IMG/VR virus record: IMGVR_UViG_2778261570_000017
Span: 1-19,403 of that record
Source of the DNA: a virus
Lineage: Duplodnaviria > Heunggongvirae > Uroviricota > Caudoviricetes
Length of the DNA stretch: 19,403 nucleotides
Strand: one strand, 5' to 3'
The notes under the pieces were generated by a model, which was not told the DNA's origin, searched no databases, and saw nothing but the letters and a program-made list of their open reading frames with translations. This document shows, in pieces, positions 1 through 19,324 of the stretch; within the stretch, counting starts at the first letter, position 1; the number at the start of each line of letters is the position of its first letter. Made by a program: the position numbers and the translations under genes.

Positions 1-2
1 TT

Positions 3-65
3 ACAGGTATGGAACGCATTAAGGCAGTACGTGAAATTATTCGTGAACGGGGAAAAGCAAAATGA
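3..65 (+). CDS. 3' end of an upstream CDS (reading frame 3, ...TGMERIKAVREIIRERGKAK*), partial; possibly the primase partner of the downstream Rep
   Basis: Open frame runs in from the window edge and stops at TGA 63-65, overlapping the ATG at 62 (ATGA coupling) of the next gene. Identity not determinable from 21 residues. Confidence 0.4.
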   Translation, partial: TGMERIKAVREIIRERGKAK

Positions 66-1468
66 AACTGGCACCGAACGTAAAACTGTTACCGAAAGAT
101 AAACACACTGAGGCGGTTATTTTTGCGGGTGATAATGCTCACTCCTTTGCAGAACATTACATGATTGCACAGGCCAAAAAAGCAGGCGATCCCATCCCTC
201 CGGTTTACCTGGGCCGTTATCAGTTAAGCGAACTGGACAATTTACAGATTGTTGATGAAGGACGATACAGAGCAAAGGTCATACGCGCCGGAAACCTGGA
301 CGATATGCAGATGCTGACCATTGCCACCAAACTGGCGATCGCAGGTGTCCAGGAAGCACGGTTACTTTCAGAGAATTTCGAACTGCTGGAGGACTGGAGC
401 GAGCAACTACCGCGGCTTAAAGAAACCTGGGAACGCGGGGAAAGTCTGGTCATGAATGGTGGAAAGCGAAAAATCACACTTCCCATCTCATGGGGTTCTG
501 AGGGATTCGACGCGCAGCAAAGCTACGTAATTAAGGGGCTTATTCCGGCTGAGTCATTATGCAGCACCTACGGGGCCAGCGGTTCTTATAAATCGTTCCT
601 GGCTATTTCCTGGTCGTGCCATGTTGTCACAGGTATGGCATGGGGAGGCCGCAGGGTAAGTAAGGGCGCTGTTATCTATATCGCTGGCGAAGGCAGTATG
701 GGCGTAAAACGCCGCGTTAAGGCGTGGGAGATAACCCATGACAAGGTGGTTACGGATTTGTGCATCGTTAACGCGCCTGTTTTCCCTGCATCGCCTGACT
801 ATGTGGAGCAGGTTATCAGGACTGCCGGACTTGTTAAGAGCAGAACGGGCGAAAATGTGCGGCTGATTGTGATCGACACGCTGGCCCGTTGCTTTGGTGG
901 GAATGATGAAAATGATTCCCGTGATATGGGCGCATTTATCCAGGGGTGTGACGCGATAAAGCAGGCCACAGGGGCCACGGTACTGGTGGTTCACCATTCC
1001 GGCAAGGATGAAACAAAGGGGGCGCGAGGTTCCAGCGCATTCCGCGCTGCACTGGATGCAGAGTACCGAATCAGCCGGGAAAATTCAGACGTTACAGCAC
1101 TGGTGGCGGCGTGTACGAAGATGAAGGACGCAGAGGAGCCAAAAGAGAGTGCATACGATCTTAAAAGCGTGGAGGTGTTCACCGATACAGATGGCGAAGA
1201 GATTGTGTCCATGGTGGTGATTGACGTTCCCCGCGCCCCTGCTGAACTGGAGCGCATAGAGGAGGCCGGGAACAAGACGGAAAATCACACGGCTTTATGG
1301 GGTTGTATCCGGTCGCGTATACAGCATGGTGATAAATGTACGATCCCGCTGCTACGTGATGACATGAAAAAGCTGGGATATGACACAAAACACCTTAAAC
1401 GATGGTTAGCCAAACTGGAAAAAGACGGCGTGATTTGCGTCGATGGGGATGATGTTCACCCACTGTAA
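62..1468 (+). CDS. Replication ATPase/helicase, RecA-fold (RepA/AAA_25-like)
   Basis: 468-aa ORF with Walker A-like YGASGSYKS, Walker B-like hydrophobic stretch ending in Asp (RLIVIDTLARCF) and VLVVHHSGKD. Coupled to the upstream ORF and followed immediately by an iteron array. Confidence 0.6.
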   Translation: MKLAPNVKLLPKDKHTEAVIFAGDNAHSFAEHYMIAQAKKAGDPIPPVYLGRYQLSELDNLQIVDEGRYRAKVIRAGNLDDMQMLTIATKLAIAGVQEARLLSENFELLEDWSEQLPRLKETWERGESLVMNGGKRKITLPISWGSEGFDAQQSYVIKGLIPAESLCSTYGASGSYKSFLAISWSCHVVTGMAWGGRRVSKGAVIYIAGEGSMGVKRRVKAWEITHDKVVTDLCIVNAPVFPASPDYVEQVIRTAGLVKSRTGENVRLIVIDTLARCFGGNDENDSRDMGAFIQGCDAIKQATGATVLVVHHSGKDETKGARGSSAFRAALDAEYRISRENSDVTALVAACTKMKDAEEPKESAYDLKSVEVFTDTDGEEIVSMVVIDVPRAPAELERIEEAGNKTENHTALWGCIRSRIQHGDKCTIPLLRDDMKKLGYDTKHLKRWLAKLEKDGVICVDGDDVHPL

Positions 1469-1670
1469 AAAGTGGGCGTTAAAAGTGGGAATAGTGGGTA
1501 ATTTAACTGGAATTTAACAAAATCGCCCACTTTCCCACGTGTATACATCCCAAAAAGTGGGCACTAAAAAAATACTTATGAAACAGTACGATATAAAACC
1601 ACAAAATCCCTGGTGGGACGAAGTGGGAAACCATGAAAAGTGGGCAGAAAAAGTGGGCACAGGTGGGCGC
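1468..1670. repeat. Iteron array, (A)AGTGGG(C/A) repeated about 10 times; candidate replication origin
   Basis: AGTGGG at 1471, 1484, 1493, 1556, 1622, 1639, 1652; GGTGGG at 1612 and 1662; inverted copy CCCACT at 1526-1531. Lies directly 3' of the Rep gene. Confidence 0.6.
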
Positions 1671-1922
1671 ATGACAAGAAAAACCAGAGATAAGACAGCA
1701 CCAAAATATAAAGCGTTAGACATGACAGAGCACGCCTTAAAGGTGGCAATCAGAACGATAGACCGCCACGCCGGAGAAGGATACGCGAAAGCACATCCCG
1801 AACTGATAAGCGCATTCATGACCACGGCGGCGGCAAATTTTGCCACGCTGACAGAGCGGGAGATTGCCGAAGCGGAACAGGTGACAACCATCAACGTTAA
1901 AACCGGAGAACAGACAGCATGA
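1671..1922 (+). CDS. Small hypothetical protein (about 84 aa)
   Basis: The ORF track starts at 1539, but the N-terminal 44 codons are translated iteron repeats. The ATG at 1671 follows GGTGGGCGC. Stop TGA 1920-1922 overlaps the ATG of the next gene at 1919 (ATGA). Confidence 0.45.
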   Translation: MTRKTRDKTAPKYKALDMTEHALKVAIRTIDRHAGEGYAKAHPELISAFMTTAAANFATLTEREIAEAEQVTTINVKTGEQTA

Positions 1923-2341
1923 CAGCACAGATAGCGGCTTACGGGCGGCTGGTGGCTGACCCGCAGTTAAAGACCACCAGCAAGGGGACACAAATGGCGA
2001 TGGCGAGTATGGCGGTTCCCCTGCCGTGCAGCCAGGCAGATGACGGAACGGCGACGATGTGGTTATCCGTCCTGGCGTTTGGCAGACAGGCCGACGCACT
2101 GGCCAGACACCACAAAGGCGAACTGGTGAGCGTGGCGGGTAACATGCAGGTAAGCCAGTGGACAGGCCAGAACGGCGAAACGCGGCAGGGCTGGCAGGTT
2201 ATCGCAGACAGCGTAATCAGTGCGCGAACGGCGCGACCGGGCGGCAAAAAAGGTCAACAGGGCCAGGCTACTGACGCGCTGAACAGGGCAAAACAACAGG
2301 CGGGAAATGATGATCCGTACGGGGATAACATACCGTTTTAA
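1919..2341 (+). CDS. ssb: Single-stranded DNA-binding protein (SSB)
   Basis: 140 aa, OB-fold-like N-terminal region, Gly/Gln-rich linker and acidic C-terminal tail ...DDPYGDNIPF, matching the canonical SSB C-terminus D-D-D-I-P-F. Confidence 0.8.
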   Translation: MTAQIAAYGRLVADPQLKTTSKGTQMAMASMAVPLPCSQADDGTATMWLSVLAFGRQADALARHHKGELVSVAGNMQVSQWTGQNGETRQGWQVIADSVISARTARPGGKKGQQGQATDALNRAKQQAGNDDPYGDNIPF

Positions 2342-2358
2342 GAAACGAGTGACAGAAG

Positions 2359-2380
2359 CCGGGATTTTTCCCGGTTTTTT
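2359..2380 (+). terminator. Rho-independent terminator-like hairpin after ssb
   Basis: CCGGGA (2359-2364) / TCCCGG (2369-2374), 4-nt loop, followed by TTTTTT (2375-2380). Confidence 0.6.
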
Positions 2381-2455
2381 ACGGGTCCTCCCGGTGGAGT
2401 GGCCTTGCCACGGGGCGGGAGCGTCGCGGAAAACGGCTGATTTTTGAATTTTCAT
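2378..2455 (+). other. cos-like site copy 1 (cosQ-like TTTACGGGTCCT, 35-nt spacer, cosN-like 12-mer GGGCGGGAGCGT at 2413-2424)
   Basis: Recalled lambda cos junction is TTTACGGGTCCTTTCCGGTGATCCGACAGGTTACG|GGGCGGCGACCT|CGCGGG. Here the first 12 nt match exactly, the 35-nt distance to the GC-rich 12-mer is the same, and the ACG / CGCGG flanks match. Repeated at 4898-4978. Confidence 0.6.
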
Positions 2456-2609
2456 GGGACACCACCACATCAATTAACATGTTGAAAAATAAAATAAAAA
2501 TTGATTTTCACCTGTCCAATTTTGCTTTTTGTGGGACATCTGACCAGTTTGCAATTAATTGAAATATATAAATAAATCAGTTTTTCACCTGCCTGGTGGA
2601 GTTGCCTGT
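2456..2609. repeat. Two degenerate tandem units of about 77 bp, AT-rich, each with GGGACA..., a CAAT..ATTG-type palindrome and TTTTCACCTG(T/C)C
   Basis: Unit A 2456-2532, unit B 2533-2609. GGGACAcc at 2456 and GGGACAtc at 2533. TTTTCACCTGTCC 2505-2517 and TTTTCACCTGCC 2582-2593. Palindromes CAATTAACATGTTG 2471-2484 and CAATTAATTG 2552-2561. Confidence 0.5.
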
Positions 2610-2641
2610 ATCAAAACGTGTTCAGATGGCGGGATATTTAT

Positions 2642-2664
2642 GCCGGATTTTTTCCGGCTTTTTT
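2642..2664 (+). terminator. Rho-independent terminator-like hairpin
   Basis: GCCGGA (2642-2647) / TCCGGC (2653-2658), followed by TTTTTT (2659-2664). Nearly the same hairpin as at 2359-2380. Confidence 0.55.
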
Positions 2665-2765
2665 GCGTCTGAATCTGATTAATCTATTTTTATGATAGAA
2701 ATATGTTTATCTACCACTTTTATCGATCAATAATGATGCCCGTTAATCAAAACGGAGGCGGATTT

Positions 2766-2960
2766 ATGCCAGAGAACAACACCAGAAAGCCGGGTAAAAG
2801 TGCCACTGTGCACATAGACACCGGAACGATGGAGAAGATCGAACGCTATCAGCAGTTCATCAAAGAGAATCACCCGGGTATGCCAGTACCCACGAAAGGA
2901 CAAATCACACGCAGCGCGGTTGAATACTGGTACAAGGCAACGTTAGGAGCCTGGCTATGA
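2766..2960 (+). CDS. Small protein (about 64 aa), possible ribbon-helix-helix DNA-binding fold
   Basis: GGAGG at 2754-2758 lies 7 nt before the ATG at 2766; the ORF-track start at 2703 has no RBS. Predicted strand-helix-helix pattern (ATVHID / TMEKIERYQQFIKEN / GQITRSAVEYWYKA). Stop TGA 2958-2960 overlaps the ATG at 2957 of the capsid gene. Confidence 0.45.
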   Translation: MPENNTRKPGKSATVHIDTGTMEKIERYQQFIKENHPGMPVPTKGQITRSAVEYWYKATLGAWL

Positions 2961-4873
2961 AAACATGGTTTTCCATTAAGGCGGCGGATGTGCGTGGAAC
3001 GGTGGAAATATCCATCTATGAAGAAATTGGCGGCTTCGGTATTACCGCGAAGCAGTTCTCGGAAGATCTGAAAGCCCTTGGCGATGTTTCACATATCGAC
3101 CTACGGATCCATTCGCCTGGCGGTGACGTGTTTGAAGGCATCGCCATCTATAACCTGCTACGGAATCATCCGGCAGACATTACGGTTTATATCGATGGCG
3201 TGGCGGCTTCAATGGCTTCGGTCGTCGCAATGGCTGGCGATCGCGTTGTTATGCCGGAGAACGCCATGATGATGATCCATAAGCCGTGGGGGATCTCTGG
3301 CGGAAATGCTGGCGATATGCGTGATTATGCTGATTTGCTGGATAAAGTGGAAACCGTGTTAATCCCTGCTTATGCCAGAAAAACAGGCAAATCAGCACAG
3401 GAAATTGCCGCCATGCTGGAAGATGAAACCTGGATGGACGGGAAAGAATGCCTTAAGCACGGTTTTGCTGATGAATTGTTGCCATCTGTCAGAGCAATGG
3501 CGCGAATTGAATCGAAACGCACAGGAGATTTTTTACATATGCCGGAAACCATTAAGGGAATGATTACCCCGCCGAAATCACAGGCAAAAAACACCATTAC
3601 AGGCGACCAGGAGCGCATTAACGGCATTAAAGAAATTTTTAGCGTGTTCGGCAACCAGTACGACGGGATCAAAATGTCGTGCCTTGAAGATGCATCCTGT
3701 ACGCTGGAAATGGCCCGGGAACGTCTGCTTAACGAAATGGGTAAAAACCACACACCAACAAATAAAAATATCCCGTCTCATATTTATGCCGGAAACGGGA
3801 ACATAACAGGCGATGCGATTCGCCAGGGCCTTTATTCCCGTCTTGGGTATGAGCGTCCTGAGCGTGGCAATCCTTACGCGATGATGAGTCTTTTTGAAAT
3901 GGCCCAGGCGTCACTGGTTGATCGTGGTATCAGTGTTGGCGGTTTTTTAAATCGCTCGCAGGTCGTTAATGCAGCTTTTACACACAGCAGCAGTGATTTT
4001 TCTCATATTCTGGCTGGCGGTGCTGAAAAATCAGTGCTGAAAGGCTGGCAGGACAGCGGCGAAACGTTCCAGAAGTGGACGCGTAGCGGATCGCTTTCAA
4101 ACTTTCACGAGGCAAAACGCGTTGGCCTGAATGGTTTTTCAAAACTGGATAAAGTGCCGGAAGGCGCGGAATATAAATACATTACTACCAGTGACAAGGG
4201 CGTACCTATTGCGCTGGCCACATACGGGAATATTTTTTCTGTTACCCGCCAGGCCATTATTAACGATGACCTGACCCAGTTAACTACAATCCCCATGGCG
4301 ATGGGGCGTGCAGCCGCCAGAACAGTAGGTAATCTGGTGTATCTCCTGTTAACCGGCAATGGCAAATTCACGGATGGTAAGGCGCTATTCCATGCCGATC
4401 ATAAAAATCTTATTGCGAAGGATATGGACATGGAGGGGCTTAACGAAGCCCGTAAGCTGATGCGCCTCCAGGAGGACGCTAACGGTGATTCGCTGAATAT
4501 TACCCCCGCATTTGTCCTGGTCCCCGCCGCGCTGGAGTCTGCCGCACATCGCGCCATTCTGTCATCGTCATCACTCTTTCAGGTTGATGGTGAGGGCACT
4601 ATCAATCAGAACCCCGGCATCATTAACGTGGTGAAAGATATGGCTGAGGTTATTGTTGAGCCACGTCTTGATAAGAACAATAACAAGGAGTGGTATGTAG
4701 CCGCAGCGAAAGGGATGGACACGATAGAGGTCGCTTATCTTGATGGTATTGATACGCCATATCTTGAGGAGCAGGAGGGCTTTACTGTTGATGGTGTCGC
4801 CTGGAAGGTGCGCATAGATGCAGGTGTTGCGGCCCTCGATTATCGTGGACTACTGAAATCGAGTGGAGCATGA
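2957..4873 (+). CDS. Prohead protease (ClpP/S14-like) fused to HK97-fold major capsid protein, copy 1
   Basis: 638 aa. N-terminal about 190 aa carries protease motifs (HSPGGDVFEG, DGVAASMAS, MMIHKPWG); the C-terminal region is colinear and homologous along its full length with the second copy at 8636-10696. AGGAG RBS at 2944-2948. Confidence 0.85.
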   Translation: MKTWFSIKAADVRGTVEISIYEEIGGFGITAKQFSEDLKALGDVSHIDLRIHSPGGDVFEGIAIYNLLRNHPADITVYIDGVAASMASVVAMAGDRVVMPENAMMMIHKPWGISGGNAGDMRDYADLLDKVETVLIPAYARKTGKSAQEIAAMLEDETWMDGKECLKHGFADELLPSVRAMARIESKRTGDFLHMPETIKGMITPPKSQAKNTITGDQERINGIKEIFSVFGNQYDGIKMSCLEDASCTLEMARERLLNEMGKNHTPTNKNIPSHIYAGNGNITGDAIRQGLYSRLGYERPERGNPYAMMSLFEMAQASLVDRGISVGGFLNRSQVVNAAFTHSSSDFSHILAGGAEKSVLKGWQDSGETFQKWTRSGSLSNFHEAKRVGLNGFSKLDKVPEGAEYKYITTSDKGVPIALATYGNIFSVTRQAIINDDLTQLTTIPMAMGRAAARTVGNLVYLLLTGNGKFTDGKALFHADHKNLIAKDMDMEGLNEARKLMRLQEDANGDSLNITPAFVLVPAALESAAHRAILSSSSLFQVDGEGTINQNPGIINVVKDMAEVIVEPRLDKNNNKEWYVAAAKGMDTIEVAYLDGIDTPYLEEQEGFTVDGVAWKVRIDAGVAALDYRGLLKSSGA

Positions 4874-4880
4874 CAACAAG

Positions 4881-4903
4881 GGCGGCGATAGCCGCCTTTT
4901 TTT
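4881..4903 (+). terminator. Rho-independent terminator-like hairpin after capsid copy 1
   Basis: GGCGGC (4881-4886), loop GATA, GCCGCC (4891-4896), then TTTTTTT (4897-4903). Confidence 0.6.
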
Positions 4904-4978
4904 ACGGGTCCTCCCGGTGGAGTGGCCTTGCCACGGGGCGGGAGCGGCGCGGAAAAAGGCTAGTTTTTGCATTTTCAT
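4898..4978 (+). other. cos-like site copy 2 (cosQ-like TTTACGGGTCCT at 4901-4912, cosN-like GGGCGGGAGCGG at 4936-4947)
   Basis: Direct repeat of 2378-2455 with about 5 mismatches. Sits where lambda cos sits, roughly 190 bp upstream of the Nu1-like TerS start. Confidence 0.65.
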
Positions 4979-5132
4979 TCATCATCATCATCTTTTCAAT
5001 GCATTGAATTTAAACGAATTTTATTTTTAGTATGTTAATTTTGCGTGTTTTTTGGTCAACATATAACGCACTTTATAACGCTTTTTGAGAAGGTGTTCGC
5101 AAGATGCATGTTTAAAACATTCTGGAGCGGGT
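4979..5132. promoter_or_regulatory. cosB-like AT-rich region between cosN-like site and TerS (candidate TerS/IHF binding sites)
   Basis: Perfect palindrome CAATGCATTG at 4997-5006, about 50 bp after the cosN-like 12-mer (the same family of palindrome sits 47 and 128 bp after the cos copy 1 12-mer). Also tandem ATAACGC and near-palindrome ATGTTTAAAACAT. Confidence 0.4.
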
Positions 5133-5618
5133 ATGGATCGAGAACTGAAAAATCTGATGCTGAACATTAACCAACTGGCGGCGATAGCGGGAATATGTCG
5201 TCAGACTGCGGCGGCAAGGCTGAAAAACATCCAGCCAGCCGGAGGACATGACAAGCTGAAACTCTATCGGGTGACTGACATTCTGACCTGTTTTCTTGAT
5301 CTTCCCGTTCCGGCATCACTGGAAGAAATGGAGCCACATGACCGTAAGGCCTGGTATCAGTCTGAACGTGAGCGCCTCAAGTTCGAACAGGAAACGGCGC
5401 AACTCATACCCGCCGATGATGTGCGAAAAGAGATGGCTATATGGGCGGAAATCGTAAGCGAGGAACTGGCAAAACTCCCCAGTATTCTGGCACGTGATGC
5501 GGGGCTTAAACCGATGGCAGTAAACAGAGTGCAGTCAATTATTGACGATTTGTGTAATCAGATTATCAGCCGGATGGTAAAAAATGACGCAGTGAATGAG
5601 GATGTAAAACAGGCATGA
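5133..5618 (+). CDS. Terminase small subunit (lambda Nu1-like)
   Basis: GGAG 5 nt upstream of the ATG at 5133. N-terminal LNINQLAAIAGICRQTAAARL resembles the Nu1 winged-HTH region (recalled lambda Nu1 MEVNKKQLADIFGASIRTIQNW). Position immediately downstream of cos. Confidence 0.7.
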   Translation: MDRELKNLMLNINQLAAIAGICRQTAAARLKNIQPAGGHDKLKLYRVTDILTCFLDLPVPASLEEMEPHDRKAWYQSERERLKFEQETAQLIPADDVRKEMAIWAEIVSEELAKLPSILARDAGLKPMAVNRVQSIIDDLCNQIISRMVKNDAVNEDVKQA

Positions 5619-5864
5619 TAATGACTGGCGCCGTGATCCCCCGTGCTACCGGAATCAGACTACCAGAAGGCAAACAGAAGACCACGCAGTCGGGCAGCGT
5701 CATCGTGTTAATGCATGGCGGCGTATTCTGCTTTTAATTAATATTGCTACCTTTTTTCTTTTTTTATCGCTTAGGCAGGTACTAAATCTTGGACTATGTG
5801 AATGGGGTTACAACTAAATAGTACCTTATAATCATTTAGTTACCTTTTATTTACTTCTTCCTGG

Positions 5865-6977
5865 ATGGAAGGCCCCGCTGCGGCATATCAGACGCTGTCC
5901 CAGCTGGTCTATAAGTTGCTGACCGCCGAACAGGAATACGAGTCGACCGGAAGCGAAGAAACGCTCAAGACAGTCATCAACACCGACTGGGGATTACCTT
6001 ATCTTCCCCGGGCCAGCATGGAGCAACGAAAAAGCGAACTGCTTGAGCAGCGGGCAGAGCCTGTTCCTCCCCGAAGTGTGCCGGATGGCGTTAATTTCCT
6101 TGCGGCGACAGTGGATGTGCAGGCGGGACGTCATCGCCGTTTTGTGGTTCAGGTAACGGGCTATGGCAGTCGTGGCGAACGCTGGATAGTTGATCGTTAC
6201 AACATCACGCAGTCGCTGCGTTGTGACAATAACGGAGAAAGCCTGCGTATTGACCCTGCCGGTTATCCGGAGGACTGGGATGTTCTGCTGACGGATGTTT
6301 TTCATAAAGGCTGGCCGCTGGCTTCTGATCCTTCTCAACAAATGCGACTGATGGCAATGGCGGTGGACTCCGGCGGTGAAGACGGGGTCACTGATAATGC
6401 CTATAAATTCTGGCGTCGTTGCCGTCGTGATGGCCTTGGTAAACGTATTTACCTGTTTAAGGGCGACAGTATCCGTCGCGCAAAACTGATAACCCGTACA
6501 TTTCCGGATAACACCGGACGAACGGGGCGACGGGCGCAGGCTTCGGGTGATGTTCCACTCTGGCTCCTTCAGACGGATGCCCTGAAAGACCGGGTGAATA
6601 ACGCGTTATGGCGTGACTCGCCAGGTCCCGGCTATGTGCATTTTCCTGACTGGCTGGGGAGCTGGTTTTACGACGAACTGACGTATGAAGAGCGGAGCAG
6701 TGACGGAAAGTGGAGTAAGCCGGGTCGCGGTGCCAACGAAGCCTTTGACCTGATGGTGTATGCCGAGGCGCTGGTTATTCTGCATGGGTACGAGAAAATT
6801 CAGTGGCCGGATGCGCCGGAATGGGCATGCAGGGAAACCTGGCTGGAATACGTCAGTGACAACGCTGAGCAGGCTGTTCTGCCGGAACCAGTCTCTCTGC
6901 CTGCCAGAAAAAAGAAACGAAAAAAAGTGACGCCCGATGAGGATAACCCCTGGGTGACTTCCGGAGGATGGTTATGA
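5865..6977 (+). CDS. Terminase large subunit (lambda gpA-like), C-terminal nuclease domain only; N-terminally truncated, possibly a pseudogene
   Basis: 370 aa, colinear with roughly the C-terminal half of lambda gpA as recalled (ATVDVQAGRHRRFVVQVTGYGSRGERWIVDR vs AGIDSQLDRYEMRVWGWGPGEESWLIDR; ANEAFDLMVYAEAL vs RNEALDCFVYALAA). No Walker A segment, and only 246 bp lie between TerS and this ORF. No clear RBS. Confidence 0.75.
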   Translation: MEGPAAAYQTLSQLVYKLLTAEQEYESTGSEETLKTVINTDWGLPYLPRASMEQRKSELLEQRAEPVPPRSVPDGVNFLAATVDVQAGRHRRFVVQVTGYGSRGERWIVDRYNITQSLRCDNNGESLRIDPAGYPEDWDVLLTDVFHKGWPLASDPSQQMRLMAMAVDSGGEDGVTDNAYKFWRRCRRDGLGKRIYLFKGDSIRRAKLITRTFPDNTGRTGRRAQASGDVPLWLLQTDALKDRVNNALWRDSPGPGYVHFPDWLGSWFYDELTYEERSSDGKWSKPGRGANEAFDLMVYAEALVILHGYEKIQWPDAPEWACRETWLEYVSDNAEQAVLPEPVSLPARKKKRKKVTPDEDNPWVTSGGWL

Positions 6978-7186
6978 ATCAGAATGATATTGAAGCCATG
7001 ATCCAGCGTTATATCGATGCGGAAATGGCAGTGCTGGACGGAAAATCCGTCACCTTTAATGGTCAGCAAATGACCATGGAAAATCTGTCCGAGATCCGCC
7101 GGGGACGTCAGGAGTGGGAGCGGCGTCTTGCTGCCCTGACTGCGCGGCGACGGGGGAACCCGGGATATAAACTGGTGAGGTTCTGA
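6974..7186 (+). CDS. Head-tail joining protein (lambda gpW-like)
   Basis: About 70 aa. ATG 6974 overlaps the TerL stop (ATGA); stop overlaps the portal ATG at 7186 (TGATG). C-terminus ...RRRGNPGYKLVRF resembles lambda W ...RRRGPAGFYV. Confidence 0.6.
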   Translation: MNQNDIEAMIQRYIDAEMAVLDGKSVTFNGQQMTMENLSEIRRGRQEWERRLAALTARRRGNPGYKLVRF

Positions 7187-8691
7187 TGGCAATTCTGGAT
7201 GATGTGATTGGTGTTTTTTCTCCAGGCTGGAAAGCGGCGAGGTTGCGCTCAAGAGCGTTAATCCGCGCTTATGAGGCTGTGAAACCCACACGCACACACA
7301 AAGCCCGACGGGAAAACCGTTCTGCCGACCAGCTCAGTAAGTACGGGGCGGTTTCCCTGCGGGAGCAGGCCCGTTTTCTGGATATCAATCATGACCTCGT
7401 AATCGGCGTTTTCGACAAGCTTGAGGAGCGGGTGATTGGTGCAAAGGGGATCATTGTTGAACCCCAGCCATTACTGAAAAACGGTGGTGTGGCTACAGAG
7501 CTGGCAATGATTATCCGTCGTTTGTGGGCGGAATGGTCTGTCAGTCCGGATGTGACCGGGCAGCATACGCGCCCCATGCTCGAACGTCTGCTGTTGCGTA
7601 CCTGGTTACGTGATGGAGAAGTGTTTGCCCAGATGGTCAGAGGCGCAGGTGCCGGGCTGGCACGGACTGCCGGTGTGCCTTTCTGGCTTGAGGCAATGGA
7701 GCCTGATTTTGTGCCCATGCTCAGTGATGAGTCTGCGGGAATGAATCAGGGAGTTTTTCTGGATAAATGGGGCAGGCCGAAAAAATACCTGGTTTATAAA
7801 AATTATCCGGTTCCCGGGCGACAGAGCGAAACCAAAGAGATCGCCGCTGAAAATATGGTGCATCTGAAGTTTACCCGCCGGCTGCACCAGACGCGTGGTA
7901 CATCCATGTTGTCGGGTGTGCTGATACGGATCAGTGCACTTAAGGAGTACGAGGATTCTGAGTTGGTTGCAGCGCGTGTTGCTGCGGCTCTGGGGTTATA
8001 TATTCGTAAAGGAGATGGACAGGATTATGAGGAACCTGTGACAAATAAAGATAATGATCGGGAACTGCATATCACTCCCGGCATTATTTATGACGATCTG
8101 CGTAAGGGGGAAGATATTGGCATGGTCAAATCTGATCGGCCTAACCCTAATCTGGAAACTTTTCGTAATGGTCAGTTGCGGGCTATGGCGGCGGGCACTC
8201 GTCTGAGCTTTTCCAGTGCAGCACGTAACTATAACGGTACCTACAGTTCCCAGCGACAGGAGCTGGTTGAGTCCACCGATGGCTATCTGATCCTGCAGGA
8301 CTGTTTTATTGGTGCTGTAACCCGTCCGGTGTACCGGGCATGGCTGAATATGGTGATTGCCGCGGGGTTGCTGAAAATTCCGTCGGATGTGGATATGAAA
8401 ACGTTATATAACGCAACATATTCTGGCCCTGTGATGCCGTGGATCGACCCAGTCAAGGAGGCTGAAGCCTGGAAAATTCAGATCCGGGGTGGTGCGGCGA
8501 CAGAATCAGACTGGGTGCGCGCCAGTGGTCGTAATCCGGATGACGTCAAACGTCGGCGCAAAGCTGAGATTGATGAAAACCGCAGGCTGGAACTGGTATT
8601 TGATACCGATCCGGCAAGTGATAAAGGAGGTGGTAATGCTGAAACAGAACGCGTGGTTCCGCGGCGAACCGAAGGCCAGCCTGAAGAATAA
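7186..8691 (+). CDS. Portal protein
   Basis: 501 aa, in the canonical position between W and the protease-capsid gene and translationally coupled to W. Confidence 0.7.
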   Translation: MAILDDVIGVFSPGWKAARLRSRALIRAYEAVKPTRTHKARRENRSADQLSKYGAVSLREQARFLDINHDLVIGVFDKLEERVIGAKGIIVEPQPLLKNGGVATELAMIIRRLWAEWSVSPDVTGQHTRPMLERLLLRTWLRDGEVFAQMVRGAGAGLARTAGVPFWLEAMEPDFVPMLSDESAGMNQGVFLDKWGRPKKYLVYKNYPVPGRQSETKEIAAENMVHLKFTRRLHQTRGTSMLSGVLIRISALKEYEDSELVAARVAAALGLYIRKGDGQDYEEPVTNKDNDRELHITPGIIYDDLRKGEDIGMVKSDRPNPNLETFRNGQLRAMAAGTRLSFSSAARNYNGTYSSQRQELVESTDGYLILQDCFIGAVTRPVYRAWLNMVIAAGLLKIPSDVDMKTLYNATYSGPVMPWIDPVKEAEAWKIQIRGGAATESDWVRASGRNPDDVKRRRKAEIDENRRLELVFDTDPASDKGGGNAETERVVPRRTEGQPEE

Positions 8692-10696
8692 TTCCTGGTT
8701 CAGAATGAAGGCGGGTCATAAAAGTGATGCGGATATTTATATCTATGACGAGATTGGTTTTTGGGGTGTTACGGCGAAACAGTTTGTCAGTGATCTGAAT
8801 GCGCTGGGCAATATTACCCACATTAATCTCCATATCAATTCACCGGGTGGCGATGTCTTTGAAGGCATCGCCATTTTTAATGCGCTGAAAAATCACGGAG
8901 CGTCCATCACTGTTTATGTGGATGGCGTTGCCGCATCCATGGCATCGGTCATTGCAATGGTGGGGGATCCCGTCATCATGCCGGAAAATGCATTCATGAT
9001 GATACATAAACCATGGGGAGTGAGTGGTGGCGATGCGGATGATATGCGCGATTATGCTGACCTGCTTGATAAAGTTGAGGCGGTCCTGTTGCCTGCTTAT
9101 GCGCAAAAAACCGGAAAAACGACAGATGAAATTGCTGCCATGCTGAAAGATGAAACCTGGATGTCCGGAGCTGAATGTCTGGCACACGGATTTGCTGACC
9201 AGGTGACACCGAAAGTTAAGGCAATGGCATGCATTCAGTCAAAACGAACAGAGGAATTTAAAAAAATGCCAGAATCCATCCGAAATATGATTATTCCGCC
9301 ACGCAACAGTGCAACGCGTGAACCTGAAAACAAAAATACTGCATCTCAGACACAGGAGCAGACTACGGCTCAGGTTGTCACAACCGCGACCATTGCGAAT
9401 GCGTCTTCCGCAGATGAAAGCAGTATCCGTGCACAGGTGCTGGCTGAGCAAAAAGCACGCGTGAGTGGTATTAATGACCTGTTTGGTATGTTTGGCGGGC
9501 GTTATCAGACATTGCAGGCCAGTTGCCTTTCCGATCCGGAGTGCTCGCTTGAGCAGGCCCGTGAGAAATTACTTAACGAAATGGGTAAGGAATTTTCACC
9601 ATCAAATAAAAACACCCCGTCCCATATTTATGCCGGCAACGGTAATTTTGTGGGAGACGGGATCCGACAGGCGCTGATGGCGCGCGCCGGATTTGCTGAG
9701 CGTGAGCAGGATAACGTCTATAACGGGATGACCCTGCGTGAATATGCCCGAATGTCACTGACAGAGCGTGGTATTGGGGTTTCCGGGTATAACCCGATGC
9801 AGATGGTGGGGGCAGCGTTCACCCACAGCACGTCTGACTTCGGTAATATTCTGTTAGATGTTGCGAACAAAGCCATTCTGCAGGGCTGGGAAGAAGCGCC
9901 TGAAACCTACGAACAGTGGACCCGAAAAGGTCAGCTGTCTGATTTTAAAATCGCTCATCGTGTGGGTATGGGGGGCTTCAGTTCTCTGCGTCAGGTGCGT
10001 GAGGGGGCGGAATATAAGTACGTCACCACCGGAGATAAACAGGCCACGATTGCACTGGCGACCTATGGCGAACTGTTCAGCATCACCCGCCAGGCCATTA
10101 TCAACGATGATCTGAATATGCTGACCGATGTTCCGATGAAACTGGGGCGTGCGGCGAAATCCACGATTGCCGATCTGGTTTATGCCATTCTGACATCTAA
10201 CCCGAAAATCTCCACGGATAATGTGAGCCTGTTCGATAAAGCGAAACATGCAAACGTACTGGAGAGCGCAGCAATGGACGTGGCATCGCTGGATAAAGCC
10301 CGCCAGTTGATGCGCGTTCAGAAAGAAGGTGAGCGTCATCTGAATATTCGCCCTGCGTTCGTACTGGTACCGACGGCGATGGAGTCTGTTGCTAACCAGG
10401 TTATTCGCTCCTCAAGTGTCAAGGGGGCTGACATTAACGCCGGTATTATTAACCCGGTGAAAGATTTTGCGACCGTTATTGCAGAGCCGCGCCTTGATGA
10501 TAACAGCCAGACCACCTTTTATCTGGCTGCGGCGAAAGGTACGGATACCATCGAAGTGGCTTATCTCAATGGGGTGGATACGCCATATATTGATCAGATG
10601 GAGGGCTTCAGCGTGGACGGCGTGACAACGAAAGTGCGTATTGACGCCGGTGTTGCACCAGTTGATCACCGCGGTCTGGTGAAATGTACGGCGTAA
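8636..10696 (+). CDS. Prohead protease (ClpP/S14-like) fused to HK97-fold major capsid protein, copy 2 (canonical head position)
   Basis: Strong RBS AAGGAGGTGG at 8624-8633 before the ATG at 8636; the ORF-track start at 8489 lies inside the portal gene. Same architecture as copy 1, plus a T/Q/A-rich low-complexity insertion of about 45 aa. Confidence 0.85.
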   Translation: MLKQNAWFRGEPKASLKNNSWFRMKAGHKSDADIYIYDEIGFWGVTAKQFVSDLNALGNITHINLHINSPGGDVFEGIAIFNALKNHGASITVYVDGVAASMASVIAMVGDPVIMPENAFMMIHKPWGVSGGDADDMRDYADLLDKVEAVLLPAYAQKTGKTTDEIAAMLKDETWMSGAECLAHGFADQVTPKVKAMACIQSKRTEEFKKMPESIRNMIIPPRNSATREPENKNTASQTQEQTTAQVVTTATIANASSADESSIRAQVLAEQKARVSGINDLFGMFGGRYQTLQASCLSDPECSLEQAREKLLNEMGKEFSPSNKNTPSHIYAGNGNFVGDGIRQALMARAGFAEREQDNVYNGMTLREYARMSLTERGIGVSGYNPMQMVGAAFTHSTSDFGNILLDVANKAILQGWEEAPETYEQWTRKGQLSDFKIAHRVGMGGFSSLRQVREGAEYKYVTTGDKQATIALATYGELFSITRQAIINDDLNMLTDVPMKLGRAAKSTIADLVYAILTSNPKISTDNVSLFDKAKHANVLESAAMDVASLDKARQLMRVQKEGERHLNIRPAFVLVPTAMESVANQVIRSSSVKGADINAGIINPVKDFATVIAEPRLDDNSQTTFYLAAAKGTDTIEVAYLNGVDTPYIDQMEGFSVDGVTTKVRIDAGVAPVDHRGLVKCTA

Positions 10697-10719
10697 ACGT
10701 CGCAGACAACAACGCTGAT

Positions 10720-10772
10720 GGCCCGTAAGGGCTTTTTTTGTACCTGAAATCAGCCCCGTTCAGGGGGCTTTG
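10720..10772 (+). terminator. Two consecutive hairpins after capsid copy 2 (attenuator/terminator-like)
   Basis: GCCC-GTAA-GGGC followed by TTTTTTT (10720-10739), then AGCCCC / GGGGCT hairpin (10752-10769). Confidence 0.45.
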
Positions 10773-10783
10773 CGGAGGCAGTT

Positions 10784-11107
10784 ATGGCAAAGAATTTTGT
10801 GGAAGACGGGAAAACGGTGGAGATTGTCGCTGGCGCAAATATCAGTAGCGGAGAGCTGGTACAGGTGGGCGATATTTTTGCTGTGGCACTGACCGATATT
10901 GCAAAAGGCGAAATTGGGGACGGCATGACTGAAGGTGTATTTATGCTGCCGAAACTGAAAACGGATGATATGAAAACCGGTAAGAAGGTTTATCTGAAGT
11001 CCGGAAAAGTTCAGCTGACTAACAGCGGCTCTGATCCGCTGGTCGGGGTTGTCTGGGCAGATGCCGGAACCAGTGCAGAAGAAGTGCCGGTAAAACTCAA
11101 TGTCTGA
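10784..11107 (+). CDS. Small head protein, DUF2190-like (possible decoration or head-completion protein)
   Basis: 107 aa, GGAGG at 10774-10778, located directly after the major capsid gene. Family assignment is from recollection. Confidence 0.45.
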   Translation: MAKNFVEDGKTVEIVAGANISSGELVQVGDIFAVALTDIAKGEIGDGMTEGVFMLPKLKTDDMKTGKKVYLKSGKVQLTNSGSDPLVGVVWADAGTSAEEVPVKLNV

Positions 11108-11375
11108 TCCCTTTTCCCGGCTGGCAGCGCGTATGGATGCTATCACGGTCAGAAAGATGGGAAAGACAGCCTCGATTAATGATGTCGATATGACCGTGAT
11201 CCCGGGAGAAACACTGGCAGAGCTGAATGCTCTGTCCGGACCTGCGGTCTCTCTGGTTGTGTTTTCTTCGGGATACCGCCCACGGCGCGGGGATCGCGTT
11301 GTTTATGACGGACAACAATGGACGGTCACACGGCATGAACGCTTTAACGGTAAGCCAATGATCTTTATTGAGTAA
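11100..11375 (+). CDS. Head-tail connector / head completion protein (lambda gpFII-like)
   Basis: 91 aa. ATG overlaps the preceding stop. C-terminal RRGDRVVYDGQQWTVTRHE resembles lambda FII RRGDTLTIGEENFWVDRVS. Confidence 0.5.
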   Translation: MSDPFSRLAARMDAITVRKMGKTASINDVDMTVIPGETLAELNALSGPAVSLVVFSSGYRPRRGDRVVYDGQQWTVTRHERFNGKPMIFIE

Positions 11376-11386
11376 AGAGGTGTGGG

Positions 11387-11965
11387 ATGAAGGGGCTTGA
11401 GAATGCCATCCGCAATCTGAACAGCCTTGATACCCGTATGGTGCCACAGGCCAGCGCATGGGCGATAAACCGTGTGGCACAGAAAGCGGTCTCGGTTGCC
11501 ACCCGGCAGGTTGCCGGGAATACCGTTGCGGGAGATAACCAGGTGAAAGGGATCCCCCTGAAACTGGTACGTCAGCGTGTCCGGGTGTTTAAAGCCAGTC
11601 CGTCAGGAAAAATGACGGCCAGGATCCGCGTTAACCGGGGCAATCTGCCCGCCATTAAGCTGGGAACAGCCCGGGTCAGACTGGCCCGGCGTGGTGGAAA
11701 ACTGCAGTACCGTGGCAGTGTGCTGAAGGTGGGTAAATATCTTTTCCGGGATGCGTTTATTCAGCAACTGGCGAATGGTCGCTGGCATGTGATGCGGCGT
11801 ATTGATGGCAAAAATCGTTACCCCATTGATGTGGTGAAAATCCCGCTGTCCGGACCGCTGACACAGGCATTTGAAGATGCCCGCGACCGCATCATTGCTG
11901 CGGAAATGCCGAAACAGCTGGGGTATGCACTGAAACAACAACTGAGGTTATGGCTGACCCGATGA
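11387..11965 (+). CDS. Tail completion protein (lambda gpZ-like)
   Basis: 192 aa, the same length as lambda Z; position between FII-like and U; RBS AGAGGTG upstream. Confidence 0.6.
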   Translation: MKGLENAIRNLNSLDTRMVPQASAWAINRVAQKAVSVATRQVAGNTVAGDNQVKGIPLKLVRQRVRVFKASPSGKMTARIRVNRGNLPAIKLGTARVRLARRGGKLQYRGSVLKVGKYLFRDAFIQQLANGRWHVMRRIDGKNRYPIDVVKIPLSGPLTQAFEDARDRIIAAEMPKQLGYALKQQLRLWLTR

Positions 11966-12363
11966 ACCGACATACACAAATCCGCCAGGCCGTACTGGCA
12001 CGCCTTCGGGAACAGTGTGGAGACAGCGCCACGTTTTTTGACGGGCTTCCGGCATTTATTGATGCGCAGGAACTGCCTGCCGTGGCGGTGTGGCTGAGTG
12101 ATGCTCAGTACACCGGAAAAATGACGGATGAAGATGACTGGCAGGCTGTTCTGCATATTGCCGTCTTCATCCGGGCACAGGCACCGGATTCAGAGCTGGA
12201 TATGTGGATGGAGAGCACCATTTTTCCTGCCCTGAATGATATACCGGCACTTTCCGGACTCATCGACACCCTGATCCCACTCGGTTTTAACTATCAACGT
12301 GATAATGAGATGGCCACCTGGGCGATGGCGGAAATCACGTACCAGATCACGTACACGAATTAA
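11962..12363 (+). CDS. Tail terminator protein (lambda gpU-like)
   Basis: Strong similarity to recalled lambda U (TFFDGLPAFIDAQELPAVAVWLSDAQYTGKMTDEDDWQAVLHIAVF vs TFFDGRPAVFDEADFPAVAVYLTGAEYTGEELDSDTWQAELHIEVF). ATG 11962 overlaps the Z stop (ATGA); the alternative ATG at 11950 is less likely. Confidence 0.85.
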   Translation: MNRHTQIRQAVLARLREQCGDSATFFDGLPAFIDAQELPAVAVWLSDAQYTGKMTDEDDWQAVLHIAVFIRAQAPDSELDMWMESTIFPALNDIPALSGLIDTLIPLGFNYQRDNEMATWAMAEITYQITYTN

Positions 12364-12373
12364 GGAGGTGGCA

Positions 12374-13117
12374 ATGACCACACCAAATCCACTGGCAAAG
12401 ACGAAAGGTGCGGGGACGACGTTCTGGATGTATACCGGCAACGGCGATGCGTTTGCGAACCCTTTGTCGGACACTGACTGGCTGCGTCTTGCGATGGTGA
12501 AGGATCTGCAGCCTGGCGAAATGACCGCTGATGCAGAAGATGACACTTATCTCGATGATGAAGATGCAGACTGGAAAACGACAACCCAGGGGCAGAAATC
12601 CGTCGGTGATACTTCGGCGACGCTGGCCTGGCGTCCGGGTGACAGCGGGCAGAAAAAACTGGTTCAGTTGTTCGACTCCGGTGAAGTCTGCGCGTTTCGT
12701 ATCAAATATCCCAACGGCACTGTTGATGTTTTCCGCGGCTGGCTGAGCTCACTGGGTAAAACCATTGCCTCAAAAGACGTGATGACCCGCACTGTGAAAA
12801 TCAGCGGTGTGGGGCGTCCGTATCTGGCAGAGGAAGGCACTGAAACCGTGAGCGTTACCGGGCTGACGGTGGCACCGGCATCTGCCAGTGTAAAAGTGGG
12901 AGCAACCACCACGCTGACCTTTACAGTAAAACCTGACGGAGCCAGTGACAAAGCGATCAGTGTGCATTCGACAGATCCACAGACTGCCACGGTGACCCTG
13001 AACGGGCTTGTGGCCACGGTGAAAGGCGTGAAGCAGGGCAGTGTCAGCATTGTGGGCATGACTTCTGACGGCGATTTTGTGGCCGTGGCTGCGGTGGCTG
13101 TCAGCGCCGCAGGTTAA
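12374..13117 (+). CDS. Major tail protein (lambda gpV-like) with C-terminal Ig-like domain
   Basis: RBS AAGGAGGTG before the ATG at 12374. N-terminus MTTPNPLAKTKGAGTTFWMYTGNGDAFANPLSD matches lambda V [33 protein letters not shown]. The ORF-track start at 12299 lies inside U. Confidence 0.9.
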   Translation: MTTPNPLAKTKGAGTTFWMYTGNGDAFANPLSDTDWLRLAMVKDLQPGEMTADAEDDTYLDDEDADWKTTTQGQKSVGDTSATLAWRPGDSGQKKLVQLFDSGEVCAFRIKYPNGTVDVFRGWLSSLGKTIASKDVMTRTVKISGVGRPYLAEEGTETVSVTGLTVAPASASVKVGATTTLTFTVKPDGASDKAISVHSTDPQTATVTLNGLVATVKGVKQGSVSIVGMTSDGDFVAVAAVAVSAAG

Positions 13118-13137
13118 CAGGACGATACTCATCATTT

Positions 13138-13161
13138 GCCCCGGTTATCCGGGGCTTTTTT
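13138..13161 (+). terminator. Strong hairpin plus T-run between V and G (terminator/attenuator)
   Basis: GCCCCGG (13138-13144), loop TTAT, CCGGGGC (13149-13155), then TTTTTT (13156-13161). Confidence 0.65.
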
Positions 13162-13177
13162 GCAAGTGGAGAACATG

Positions 13178-13564
13178 ATGTTTCTGAAACAGGGCACGTT
13201 TAATTATGAAAAGCAGTCCGTGGTGCTCAGTGAGCTGTCCGGGCTGCAGAGAATTGAATATCTGGCGTTTGTTCAGCAGCGAACGGCAAAGTTTGATGCC
13301 GGGGAGGGAGAACTGCCGGAGGCTGAACGACAGATTGCTTTTCTGCGGATGGGGATGGATATCAATGCCTGGCTGGTTTCCCGCTCACTGTGGAATGCGG
13401 ATCAGTCTAAGGATGTAGAGACGCTTTGCGCATCCGTTATTACAACATGGTCGTATGATGCCCTGGGTGCGGGGGCGGAGATGGTTCTGTCGCTGAGCGG
13501 TATGGGGGCCATTGATAATGCCGGGGATGATGAGCATGAGGTGCTGACGCCGGAAAAGTCCTGA
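13178..13564 (+). CDS. Tail assembly chaperone (lambda gpG-like)
   Basis: MFLKQGTFNYEKQSVVLSELSGLQRIEYLAF resembles lambda G MFLKTESFEHNGVTVTLSELSALQRIEHLAL. GGAG 6 nt before the ATG at 13178. The ORF-track start at 13136 runs through the terminator hairpin. Confidence 0.85.
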   Translation: MFLKQGTFNYEKQSVVLSELSGLQRIEYLAFVQQRTAKFDAGEGELPEAERQIAFLRMGMDINAWLVSRSLWNADQSKDVETLCASVITTWSYDALGAGAEMVLSLSGMGAIDNAGDDEHEVLTPEKS

Positions 13565-13902
13565 CGCGGGAAATGCAGTTTGTCATGCGGCTTGCCCGGG
13601 AGTTCCGGCGGGCAGACTGGCGGCGGATGCTGTCGGAAATGTCAGCCACTGAGCTTGGTGAGTGGGGCGATTATTTCCGGATGCAGAGCTTCAGTGATGT
13701 GTGGATGGATGCGCAGTTTGCCTCGCTGAAGGCATTGATCGTGAGAATGGTGTCCGGCAGCAGTGATGCTGCGGTGGCTGATTTCAGCCTTTTACCGGAA
13801 GAGAACGGGATACCGGAGCGAACGGACGAAGAACTGATGCATCTTGGGGAAGGTATTTCCGGAGGTGTGCGTTATGGACCAGATAGCCAACCTGGTCATT
13901 GA
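13540..13902 (+). CDS. gpT-like segment, expressed as the G-T fusion by -1 frameshift (-1 frame relative to G)
   Basis: Open frame in the -1 frame relative to G overlapping the G 3' end, typical of the conserved G/G-T tail chaperone pair. Confidence 0.6.
   Translation, partial: GADAGKVLTREMQFVMRLAREFRRADWRRMLSEMSATELGEWGDYFRMQSFSDVWMDAQFASLKALIVRMVSGSSDAAVADFSLLPEENGIPERTDEELMHLGEGISGGVRYGPDSQPGH
13552..13558 (+). promoter_or_regulatory. Candidate -1 programmed frameshift site GGAAAAG producing the G-T fusion
   Basis: The -1 frame is open only from 13540 and G stops at 13562-13564, so the shift must occur in 13540-13561. The only slippery candidate there is G-GAA-AAG (lambda uses G-GGA-AAG). 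Confidence 0.5.
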
Positions 13903-16939: not shown

Positions 16940-17268
16940 TGGAAACTTTTCACTGGAAAATTCGCCCTGATATGACTGTGGCATCGGAACCGAAGGTGGT
17001 GACAGTGAAGCTGGGCGATGGTTATGAACAGCGTCGTGCGGCGGGACTGAATAACCAGTTGTCGACTTACAGCGTGACGATACGTGTTCGTAAATGTGAA
17101 CACCCATCTTTAAAAGCCTTTCTGGAACGGCACGGTGGCGTCCGCGCATTTCAGTGGACGCCACCTTATGACTGGAAGCCGATCAGGGTGGTTTGTCGTA
17201 AATGGTCGGCAAGCGTGGGGGCGTTGTGGGTAACCATAACGGCAGATTTTGAACAGGTCGTGGCATAG
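16939..17268 (+). CDS. Minor tail protein (lambda gpM-like)
   Basis: METFHWKIRPDMTVASEPKVVTVKLGDGYEQR vs lambda M MKTFRWKVKPGMDVASVPSVRKVRFGDGYSQR. ATG overlaps the H stop (TAATG). Confidence 0.9.
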   Translation: METFHWKIRPDMTVASEPKVVTVKLGDGYEQRRAAGLNNQLSTYSVTIRVRKCEHPSLKAFLERHGGVRAFQWTPPYDWKPIRVVCRKWSASVGALWVTITADFEQVVA

Positions 17269-17277
17269 GAGGCTCTG

Positions 17278-17976: not shown

Positions 17977-17980
17977 ACCC

Positions 17981-19263: not shown

Positions 19264-19282
19264 TGAAAAATGTTTTATGTGA

Positions 19283-19302
19283 AACCGCCTGCGGGCGGTT
19301 TT
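19283..19302 (+). terminator. Hairpin between I and J (terminator/attenuator-like)
   Basis: AACCGCC (19283-19289), loop TGCG, GGCGGTT (19294-19300), followed by TT. Confidence 0.4.
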
Positions 19303-19324
19303 GTCGTTTATGGAGCGTGAGGAA

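Follow-up and report, generated by a model that had tools for sequence, protein, structure and literature searches.

A phage-type cosB region without its small terminase gene at the first of two cos sites in a satellite embedded in a prophage terL gene

What is the role of an AT-rich, repetitive stretch of DNA lying immediately behind a cos site, in an element that carries a second cos site further on? The window studied here, a 19,403-nt stretch of a caudoviricete virus record (IMGVR_UViG_2778261570_000017, positions 1 to 19,403), raises this question at positions 2456-2640. Working from the letters alone, an initial annotation described two degenerate tandem units with palindromes at this place, proposed that the two cos copies have related cosB-like regions recognized by the same or a modified small terminase subunit (TerS), and left room for a second origin or an operator array.

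The surroundings of the locus tell in which kind of element it lies. Window positions 1 to ~5703 are the right part of a ~10-kb satellite of the PICI type. A related element adjoins tRNA-Pro in E. coli RM8082, EC-107 and Z1323CEC0009, in the order integrase, HTH regulator, Icd-like gene, DUF4222, RepA-type helicase/primase and SSB, followed by a late module of cos1, a small ORF, a ClpP-protease/major-capsid fusion, cos2 and a DUF1441 small terminase. In the window, and likewise in SCU-125, EC42405, strain 20 and the IMG/VR contig L009, the satellite sits inside terL of a lambdoid prophage: the integrase of the satellite has the ATPase half of the gene before it in the latter four, and the nuclease half (window 5865-6977) comes after the satellite TerS and continues into portal, capsid and tail genes. 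With terL split in this way, the helper would be without TerL production until the satellite excises. The window holds the RepA-type helicase, iterons, SSB, capsid gene, two cos sites and TerS of the island, to which full-length relatives add integrase, HTH regulator, BRO-N and Icd-like genes. This set of genes is in keeping with the hallmarks of a PICI (a small island with integrase, AlpA-type regulator, replication module with origin, late zone and cos), and the lack of tail, portal or TerL genes in the island suggests dependence on a helper. The window is a helper-embedded PICI configuration, as in PMC10111431. The features of this part outside the cos sites are:

2766-2960, plus strand: 64-aa ORF (phrog_4934), between the two cos sites
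2957-4873, plus strand: satellite ClpP-protease/major-capsid fusion, between the two cos sites
5703-5864, no strand: right junction between satellite and interrupted terL, AT-rich, presumed attR; the match to the tRNA-Pro satellite runs up to 5703, and that to cdtI terL starts again at 5858

Behind this AT-rich junction lies a 370-aa ORF with a GpA nuclease domain only. The 64-aa ORF has, by eye, the look of a ribbon-helix-helix protein, for which Pfam gave no support.

The repeat at 2456-2609 is a genuine though degenerate duplication. Compared without gaps, the units 2456-2532 and 2533-2609 are identical at 43 of 77 positions, against 21 ± 3.7 in shuffles (z = 5.8), which bears out the two degenerate units first described; between random pairs of equally AT-rich 77-mers, 43 matches occur with a frequency of 3e-5. 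An offset of 77 is the top self-offset within the cosB region of cos1, and the same self-similarity is seen in cdtI (37/77), in phage L016 (38/77) and in other class-A phages. Tandem Repeats Finder did not call a 77-bp array, its sole row being the stem of a terminator, so that "degenerate" is an apt word. The AT-richness is there as well (GC 0.32-0.36 over 2476-2775), as are GGGACA at the unit starts (2456-2461 and 2533-2538) and the unit-end motif TTTTCACCTG(T/C)C, which occurs as TTTTCACCTGTC (2505-2516) and TTTTCACCTGCC (2582-2593), 77 nt apart. Two of the palindromes are perfect over 10 bp, CAATTAATTG at 2552-2561 and CAATGCATTG at 4997-5006, and the distances of 47, 128 and 50 nt that had been given between palindromes and the 12-mers GGGCGGGAGCGT (2413-2424) and GGGCGGGAGCGG (4936-4947) are correct. 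One palindrome had to be amended: CAATTAACATGTTG (2471-2484) is not palindromic as a whole, only AACATGTT (2476-2483) is.

These palindromes are the cores of IHF-like sites that lie mid-unit. A relaxed IHF pattern, YAANNNNTTGAWW, has just three sites in the 19.4-kb window, all within its two cosBs, and by sequence those at 2475-2487 and 2552-2564 each have one mismatch (TTGAA) against the consensus WATCAANNNNTTR. Each of the two modules, offset by 76-77 bp, consists of three parts: the half-site GGGACA, an IHF-like site that runs into an A/T tract, and a second half-site, inverted, within TTCACCTG(T/C)C; the half-sites are putative, assigned by conservation and symmetry. In cos coordinates, GGACA is at bp 45-49, the IHF-like site at bp 63-75 and CACCTGTCC at bp 97-105 in the first module, and GGACA at bp 122-126, the IHF-like site at bp 140-152 and CACCTGCC at bp 174-181 in the second. 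The parts of cos1 are:

2382-2412, plus strand: cosQ-like segment of cos1, ACGGGTCCTCCCGGTGGAGTGGCCTTGCCACG, the upstream part of an 81-nt direct repeat, kept upstream of cosN in phages and satellites
2413-2424, plus strand: cosN, cohesive-end 12-mer of cos1, GGGCGGGAGCGT, placed by the starts of the cdtI and Tritos records
2425-2455, plus strand: bp 13-43, CGCGGAAAACGGCTGATTTTTGAATTTTCAT, conserved and shared by every cosB type, with which the 81-nt repeat ends; diversity among satellites 0.053
2456-2532, plus strand: cosB module 1, of a rare subtype (A2), its element positions matching those of cross-genus relatives; GGGACA at 2456-2461, IHF-like TAACATGTTGAAA at 2475-2487 with an A/T tract to ~2502, putative half-site CACCTGTCC at 2509-2517
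2533-2596, plus strand: cosB module 2, canonical cdtI type A from ~2545 on, near-invariant in 34 phage and satellite type-A sequences and conserved across genera; GGGACA at 2533-2538, IHF-like palindrome CAATTAATTGAAA at 2552-2564, putative half-site TTCACCTGCC at 2584-2593

The identity of cos1 comes from phage genome ends. Window 2413-2615 aligns at 76% to bp 1-204 of the phages cdtI and Tritos, whose GenBank records have as their first base the one aligned to window 2413. From this it follows that GGGCGGGAGCGT is the cohesive-end sequence and that the DNA between the cohesive end and terS is cosB, and in both phages the homologous stretch is the cosB region in this very place. As in a lambda-like cos, virion DNA would start here, to judge from the aligned record starts, and the window aligns over the entire interval in which cosB lies, at a fixed distance, between cosN and terS. 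In 28 IMG/VR loci an intact terS comes after this cosB. A cognate terS directly downstream is found at cos2 (TerS, 5133-5618); at cos1 there is a stub. The duplication of cos consists of an 81-nt direct repeat, 2375-2455 against 4898-4978, 94% identical, and its cosQ-like segment at 2382-2412 is one that we take to resemble the right end of lambda. We had considered these repeats as att sites of a 2.5-kb insertion and dropped the idea, given that the two-cos layout is found both at tRNA-Pro and in terL, and with differing cos2 types.

The layout is conserved well beyond E. coli. Relatives of the class-A TerS come from Scandinavium, Buttiauxella, Edwardsiella, Yersinia, Providencia, Proteus, Rouxiella, Rahnella and Xenorhabdus, and 12 cos regions, taken from nine genera and accompanied by TerS proteins as little as 55% identical, need only 2-3 gap columns over ~200 bp to align. 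In nearly all the aligned phage relatives of cos1 (nine genera) the terS ATG falls at bp 196-197, and at cos2 at bp 198. The conserved blocks are bp 13-44, TGTCA (bp 46-50), CAGGTG (bp 55-60), the half-site blocks GAGGTGACA (bp 98-106), its inverted partner TGTCACCTC (bp 122-130) and TCACCTGACA (bp 174-182), and the RBS with the ATG; they coincide with the proposed elements, that is, half-sites at bp 46, 98-106, 122-130 and 174-182 and the IHF site at bp 64-76. In eight of the aligned sequences the match to WATCAANNNNTTR at bp 64-76 is perfect (E. coli type A, Scandinavium, Providencia, Proteus, Xenorhabdus), and a second IHF-like site at bp 140-152 is present in E. coli, Scandinavium and Yersinia. 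In GenBank, cdtI terS (MELLMSNV..., L001 185-196) probably begins four codons ahead of its true start; both the PGAP annotation of EC42405 and the alignment across genera put that start at MSNVSG (bp 197), so that cosB reaches bp 196. Both the motifs and their spacing thus recur in homologous cos regions from eight genera or more, a point on which the initial annotation had staked its own reading, and together with the homology to the cdtI and Tritos genome ends this supports taking 2456-2640 as the cosB half of cos1.

No TerS to match cos1 is encoded by the satellite. Phage homology of the window ends at ~2615, and in all 22 satellites with this cosB it stops two codons into terS. In these 22 the ATG is replaced, phage TTATGTCAAAT having become CTGTATCAAAA or CTGTGTCAAAA, and a hairpin terminator comes next. 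Downstream of the modules we find:

2597-2641, plus strand: vestige of a type-A terS, with the Shine-Dalgarno region and the first two codons kept and the ATG destroyed (phage TTATGTCAAAT, window CTGTATCAAAA)
2642-2668, plus strand: intrinsic terminator, GCCGGATTTTTTCCGGC with a T run, closing the cosB/terS stub; stem conserved and loop variable among satellites
2669-2765, plus strand: non-coding and conserved (to ~2740 in 17 satellites), ahead of the 64-aa ORF and the capsid operon; putative regulatory or promoter region

The length of the T run varies among satellites, which would shift the frame of a 28-aa stub ORF, and no ORF of at least 20 aa in 2400-2770 is conserved among them. A search of 2200-5300 against Rfam (E <= 1) gave nothing relevant, so that a known sRNA ending at the 2642-2668 terminator is without support. 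The segment 2669-2740 (GTCTGAATCTGATTAATCTATTTTTATGATAGAAATATGTTTATCTACCACTTTTATCGATCAATAATG) is near-invariant in 17 satellites, against a highly variable 64-aa ORF behind it, and is likely a regulatory site for the capsid operon; a sigma-70 scan returned only weak 9/12 matches, no more than in shuffles, and none strong in 2669-2765.

If the satellite does not encode the TerS for cos1, it does encode one for cos2, and the two sites differ in specificity class. A scan of IMG/VR for the shared cosN gave 120 loci, where the sequence that follows one and the same cosQ/cosN falls into no fewer than five unrelated classes (A, B, C, D and E). At the 106 IMG/VR cos sites with a recoverable terS, the class of cosB and the TerS N-terminus (HTH) correspond one to one for classes A, B, C and D. 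Window cos1 is of class A, the cdtI class, with its subtypes A and A2, and cos2 is of class D with a class-D TerS:

4905-5132, plus strand: cos2, comprising a cosQ-like segment, cosN GGGCGGGAGCGG (4936-4947) and cosB type D; within the cosB, IHF-like CAATGCATTGAAT at 4997-5009 and the inverted repeat TATGTTAA/TCAACATA at 5031-5038 / 5056-5063
5133-5618, plus strand: satellite small terminase (DUF1441, phrog_141), cognate to cosB type D

The region behind cos1 had been described as shared with that behind cos2. This stands for the IHF-like site (bp 63-75 against bp 62-74) and for the overall length, but past the 81-nt repeat the two cannot be aligned. The idea of related cosBs read by the same or a modified TerS is right only in a weak sense, the classes being A/A2 and D and the two types of TerS having different N-termini and ~30% identity; by class, the two cosBs of the window would belong to different TerS specificities. 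Aligned by hhalign with lambda Nu1, the DUF1441 TerS gave a probability of 12-17%, weak though correctly placed; a PDB sequence search with the class-A TerS found nothing, and a single-sequence AlphaFold model of the window TerS (pLDDT 49.5) was unusable. The only apparent break in the pairing is cos2 of the EC-107 satellite (L003 19879-20085), where a class-E cosB goes with a class-D TerS N-terminus, which suggests recombination inside cosB or terS. The cohesive ends of the window also differ at base 12, T in cos1 (2424) and G in cos2 (4947), and a molecule opened at one site and finished at the other would have its ends mismatched at one base; elsewhere among the satellites the two 12-mers are identical, or the combination is reversed.

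The cosB of cos1 is not of one piece either. From 2456 to ~2545 (module 1 and the start of module 2) it departs from canonical class A, to which the distal part conforms. This variant of module 1 is present in 6 of 5426 complete E. coli genomes, all six from chickens, and it matches a natural subtype, A2, carried by the IMG/VR phage L179 and by Buttiauxella L140, in which the putative recognition helix of TerS reads DRKVVKKRL or DRKAVKRLL, against HRDTVKKRL in canonical A. One complete E. coli genome, likewise from a chicken, has a full A2 terS, and both the A2 phage and the A2/A hybrid satellites were found only in poultry-associated E. coli. By its sequence, the window cosB is an A2/A chimera with the spacing unchanged, and it might be impaired rather than adapted. 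The nuclease half of the window terL does not discriminate the cosB type of the helper, its best match being L179 (A2) at 90.6% against 88-90% for others. The E. coli Z1323CEC0009 satellite (L125) shares the rare A2/A cosB of the window; it has a 2-bp deletion in the cosN of cos2 (GGGCGGGCGTCGCGG, 17214-17230) and an intact cos1.

From the homology, architecture, conservation and cosB-TerS pairing observed, we infer protein binding, bending and use in packaging along the following lines. Helper TerS and host IHF would assemble on 2456-2640, TerL would nick cosN 44 bp upstream (2413-2424), and packaging would proceed rightward. By analogy with the R3-I1-R2 arrangement of lambda, the model for such a bend (PMC9026076), the IHF bend of each module could join two inverted half-sites for a dimer of TerS helix-turn-helix domains. 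Since the satellite has no matching terS, only a cdtI-type (A/A2) helper could supply, in trans, the TerS that reads cos1, and for cos2 the satellite would use its own TerS, which would recruit the helper TerL; module 1 would have been swapped to the rare A2 subtype with the spacing kept. Our preferred reading, which we hold to be probable without being confident of it, is therefore that the cosB of cos1 is an orphan TerS docking site in a terL-embedded satellite, read in trans by the TerS of an A or A2 helper. We count in favor of docking in trans that in the EC42405 composite the surrounding helper prophage is itself of type A. However, the resident prophage is of class B or C in the other three of the four resolved composites (SCU-125, strain 20 and L009), helpers that cos1 would be unable to serve, and this keeps alive the readings in which cos1 is a relic, or a signal for termination or a decoy. 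A wider view, which we put forward only tentatively, is that PICIs collect orphan cosB cassettes without terS beside a private cos and TerS, for several helper specificities, and exchange them module by module to track local helpers.

Alternatively, cos1 could be idle. A block of cos, terS and capsid genes would have been captured from a type-A phage, with terS through portal then deleted and only cos2 used. The terS stub abutting cosB directly, with homology ending two codons into the gene, is what such a history would leave; PICI late zones do capture helper late genes (PMC10111431), and resident helpers of type B or C are frequent. Against a relic speaks how well the stretch has been kept. 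Among 17 distinct satellites, the non-coding diversity of cos1 and its cosB is 0.03-0.13, against 0.17-0.38 at third codon positions of the SSB, small ORF and capsid genes (unit 1, 0.06 without the A2 variants; module 2, 0.046; the 22 nt of unit 2 and the stub that were fixed by the search pattern are excluded from these figures). It is almost free of indels although terS is dead in all 17, and this in satellites with a capsid gene that has diverged from those of helpers to 63-70% identity. The low diversity could also result from recent spread or from gene conversion with phage cos, rather than from selection. Furthermore, cosN is intact in 22 of 22 cos1 copies, whereas cos2 varies (class D or E in most satellites, lambda-like in L100 and L130) and is damaged in L125; module 1 has been exchanged for another natural subtype with the spacing preserved; and a second PICI family (GF60, L178) also has an orphan A2-type cosB, in inverted orientation. 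We thus regard an idle relic as unlikely, if a serious contender.

Two further readings leave cos1 a use without the initiation of packaging, or take it out of packaging altogether. It would be rather improbable, in our opinion, that cos1 is a termination signal (cosQ and cosN) for packaging started at cos2, or that its cosB is a decoy soaking up the class-A TerS of the helper. Termination in lambda needs cosQ and cosN and not cosB (PMC9026076), cos1 is the first site met, ~7.4 kb past cos2, on a concatemer of a ~10-kb element, and for the decoy it can be said that PICIs typically interfere with helper packaging (PMC6739421). But termination at cos1 would lose the capsid module from each transduced copy, and yet the double cos is stable, with a second site ~2.35 kb downstream of cos1 in 18 of the 19 satellites with enough sequence; the two cos sites of L100 and L130 have different cohesive ends, unable to pair; and conservation of the cosB modules downstream of cosN would be left unexplained. 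Operators for a satellite regulator (for instance the product of the 64-aa ORF) that controls the capsid operon, or iterons of a second origin, along the lines of the operator array or origin contemplated by the initial annotation, find little in their favor, and we give them hardly any credence. The region is indeed AT-rich, with repeated motifs just upstream of the 64-aa ORF and the capsid operon, and has weak promoter-like matches at 2474-2501 (plus strand) and 2518-2491 (minus strand). However, the same sequence stands at the genome end of phages without this ORF, replicon or downstream operon; a conserved terminator (2642-2668) separates the repeats from the operon; and neither an Rfam match nor a conserved small ORF was found here. 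As for an origin, the satellite probably has it elsewhere, at 1452-1671, where at least 10 copies of the iteron AAGTGGGC/AAGTGGGA lie in both orientations in an AT-richer gap directly after the RepA-type helicase gene, against two motif copies here.

Of the systems close to the present one, lambda cos has in common with it a cosQ-like segment, a 12-nt GGGCGG... cohesive end, ~185-195 bp from cosN to terS and a further site near the start of terS, and the IHF site that lambda has between inverted TerS half-sites would have its counterpart in the IHF-like site and putative half-sites here; the first half-site lies at ~bp 45-60 here, and R3 of lambda at bp 50-65. Unlike lambda, TerS here is of the DUF1441 and not the Phage_Nu1 family, and the motifs bear no relation to the lambda R sequences. 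Two modules make for four putative half-sites plus another IHF-like site in E. coli, Yersinia and Scandinavium, and the terS adjoining cos1 in the window is dead. Phages N15 and 21 share with the present case a common cosN with a class-specific cosB and TerS DNA-binding domain, modular and exchangeable; in N15, however, cosB is a single R3, and one cosN here goes with six classes or more (A, A2, B, C, D and E) within DUF1441 TerS.

Among satellites, the PICI EcCICFT073 carries two cos sites, both functional and each with a cosB of its own, cos1 being recognized by Rpp-TerS (PMC6092414, PMC6739421), and one of the two is dispensable (PMC6739421). It resembles the present element in two cos sites that share cosQ/cosN with helpers and differ in cosB, in a late-zone capsid gene, and in one cos adjoining a satellite gene for a DNA-binding packaging protein. 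It differs in that Rpp heterodimerizes with helper TerS, where we find a full-length TerS homologue; its cosBs match no phage cosB, where the one at cos1 here is an intact phage-type cosB; and our satellite is embedded in the helper terL. The HE-PICI 11capE, in prophage 50icd (PMC10111431), also has its own capsid gene and a cos region in common with the helper; here the target is terL, at the boundary of its ATPase and nuclease halves, and there are two cos sites and a satellite terS, which 11capE lacks, and cosB lay outside the analysis of PMC10111431. According to what PMC6092414 cites of them, SaPIbov5 and SaPIbov4 are islands with a helper-phage cos, packaged by the helper terminase, SaPIbov4 with two putative cos sites and SaPIbov5 with a capsid homologue. 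They belong to a Gram-positive host and an HNH-dependent cos, without relation to ours in sequence or TerS family.

Two-cos PICIs and HE-PICIs being already known (PMC6092414, PMC6739421, PMC10111431), this is a well-formed but fairly ordinary example, and it leaves the established picture of cos packaging and PICI biology unchanged. What it would add, as read from the sequences, is the cosB layout of DUF1441 phages, a satellite cos with an intact phage-type cosB minus terS, and a modular exchange from A to A2; a limited literature search found no description of the cosB layout of DUF1441 TerS phages, of an orphan intact cosB or of the A-to-A2 exchange. A large, uncharacterized group of lambdoid phages with DUF1441 TerS, including the cdt-toxin phage cdtI, thereby receives a sequence-level map of its proposed packaging recognition site, with an IHF-like site, four putative half-sites and a fixed spacing. 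A widespread family of E. coli satellites, some of them in a helper terL, appears to carry two packaging signals of different specificity, one wholly reliant on helper TerS. If cos1 is functional, the type of its cosB would predict which prophages mobilize which islands.

Some variations on this plan deserve mention. At ~2.36 kb past cos1, the place of cos2 is taken in L100 and L130 by a lambda-like cos, GGGCGGCAGACGCGCGGGTTTTCGCTATTTATGA, with a Nu1-like small terminase behind it, so that the two cos sites of one satellite have incompatible cohesive ends. Members of the second PICI family (L178, reverse strand, ~9100-9480; L180 7001-7260, from E. coli GF60) have a lambda E-like capsid, a decoration protein and TerS, and their second cos lies ~230 bp away, inverted. 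The window contains two ClpP-protease/major-capsid fusions, of 638 aa in the satellite (2957-4873) and 735 aa in the prophage (8489-10696), with 63-70% DNA identity, and the satellite copy may redirect capsid assembly, as Ccm in SaPIbov5. Finally, the replication module is interchangeable, Z1323CEC0009 and strain 20 having a protein of the primase family where the window and RM8082 have a RepA-type helicase, and the late module SSB-cos1-capsid-cos2 is retained with either of them.
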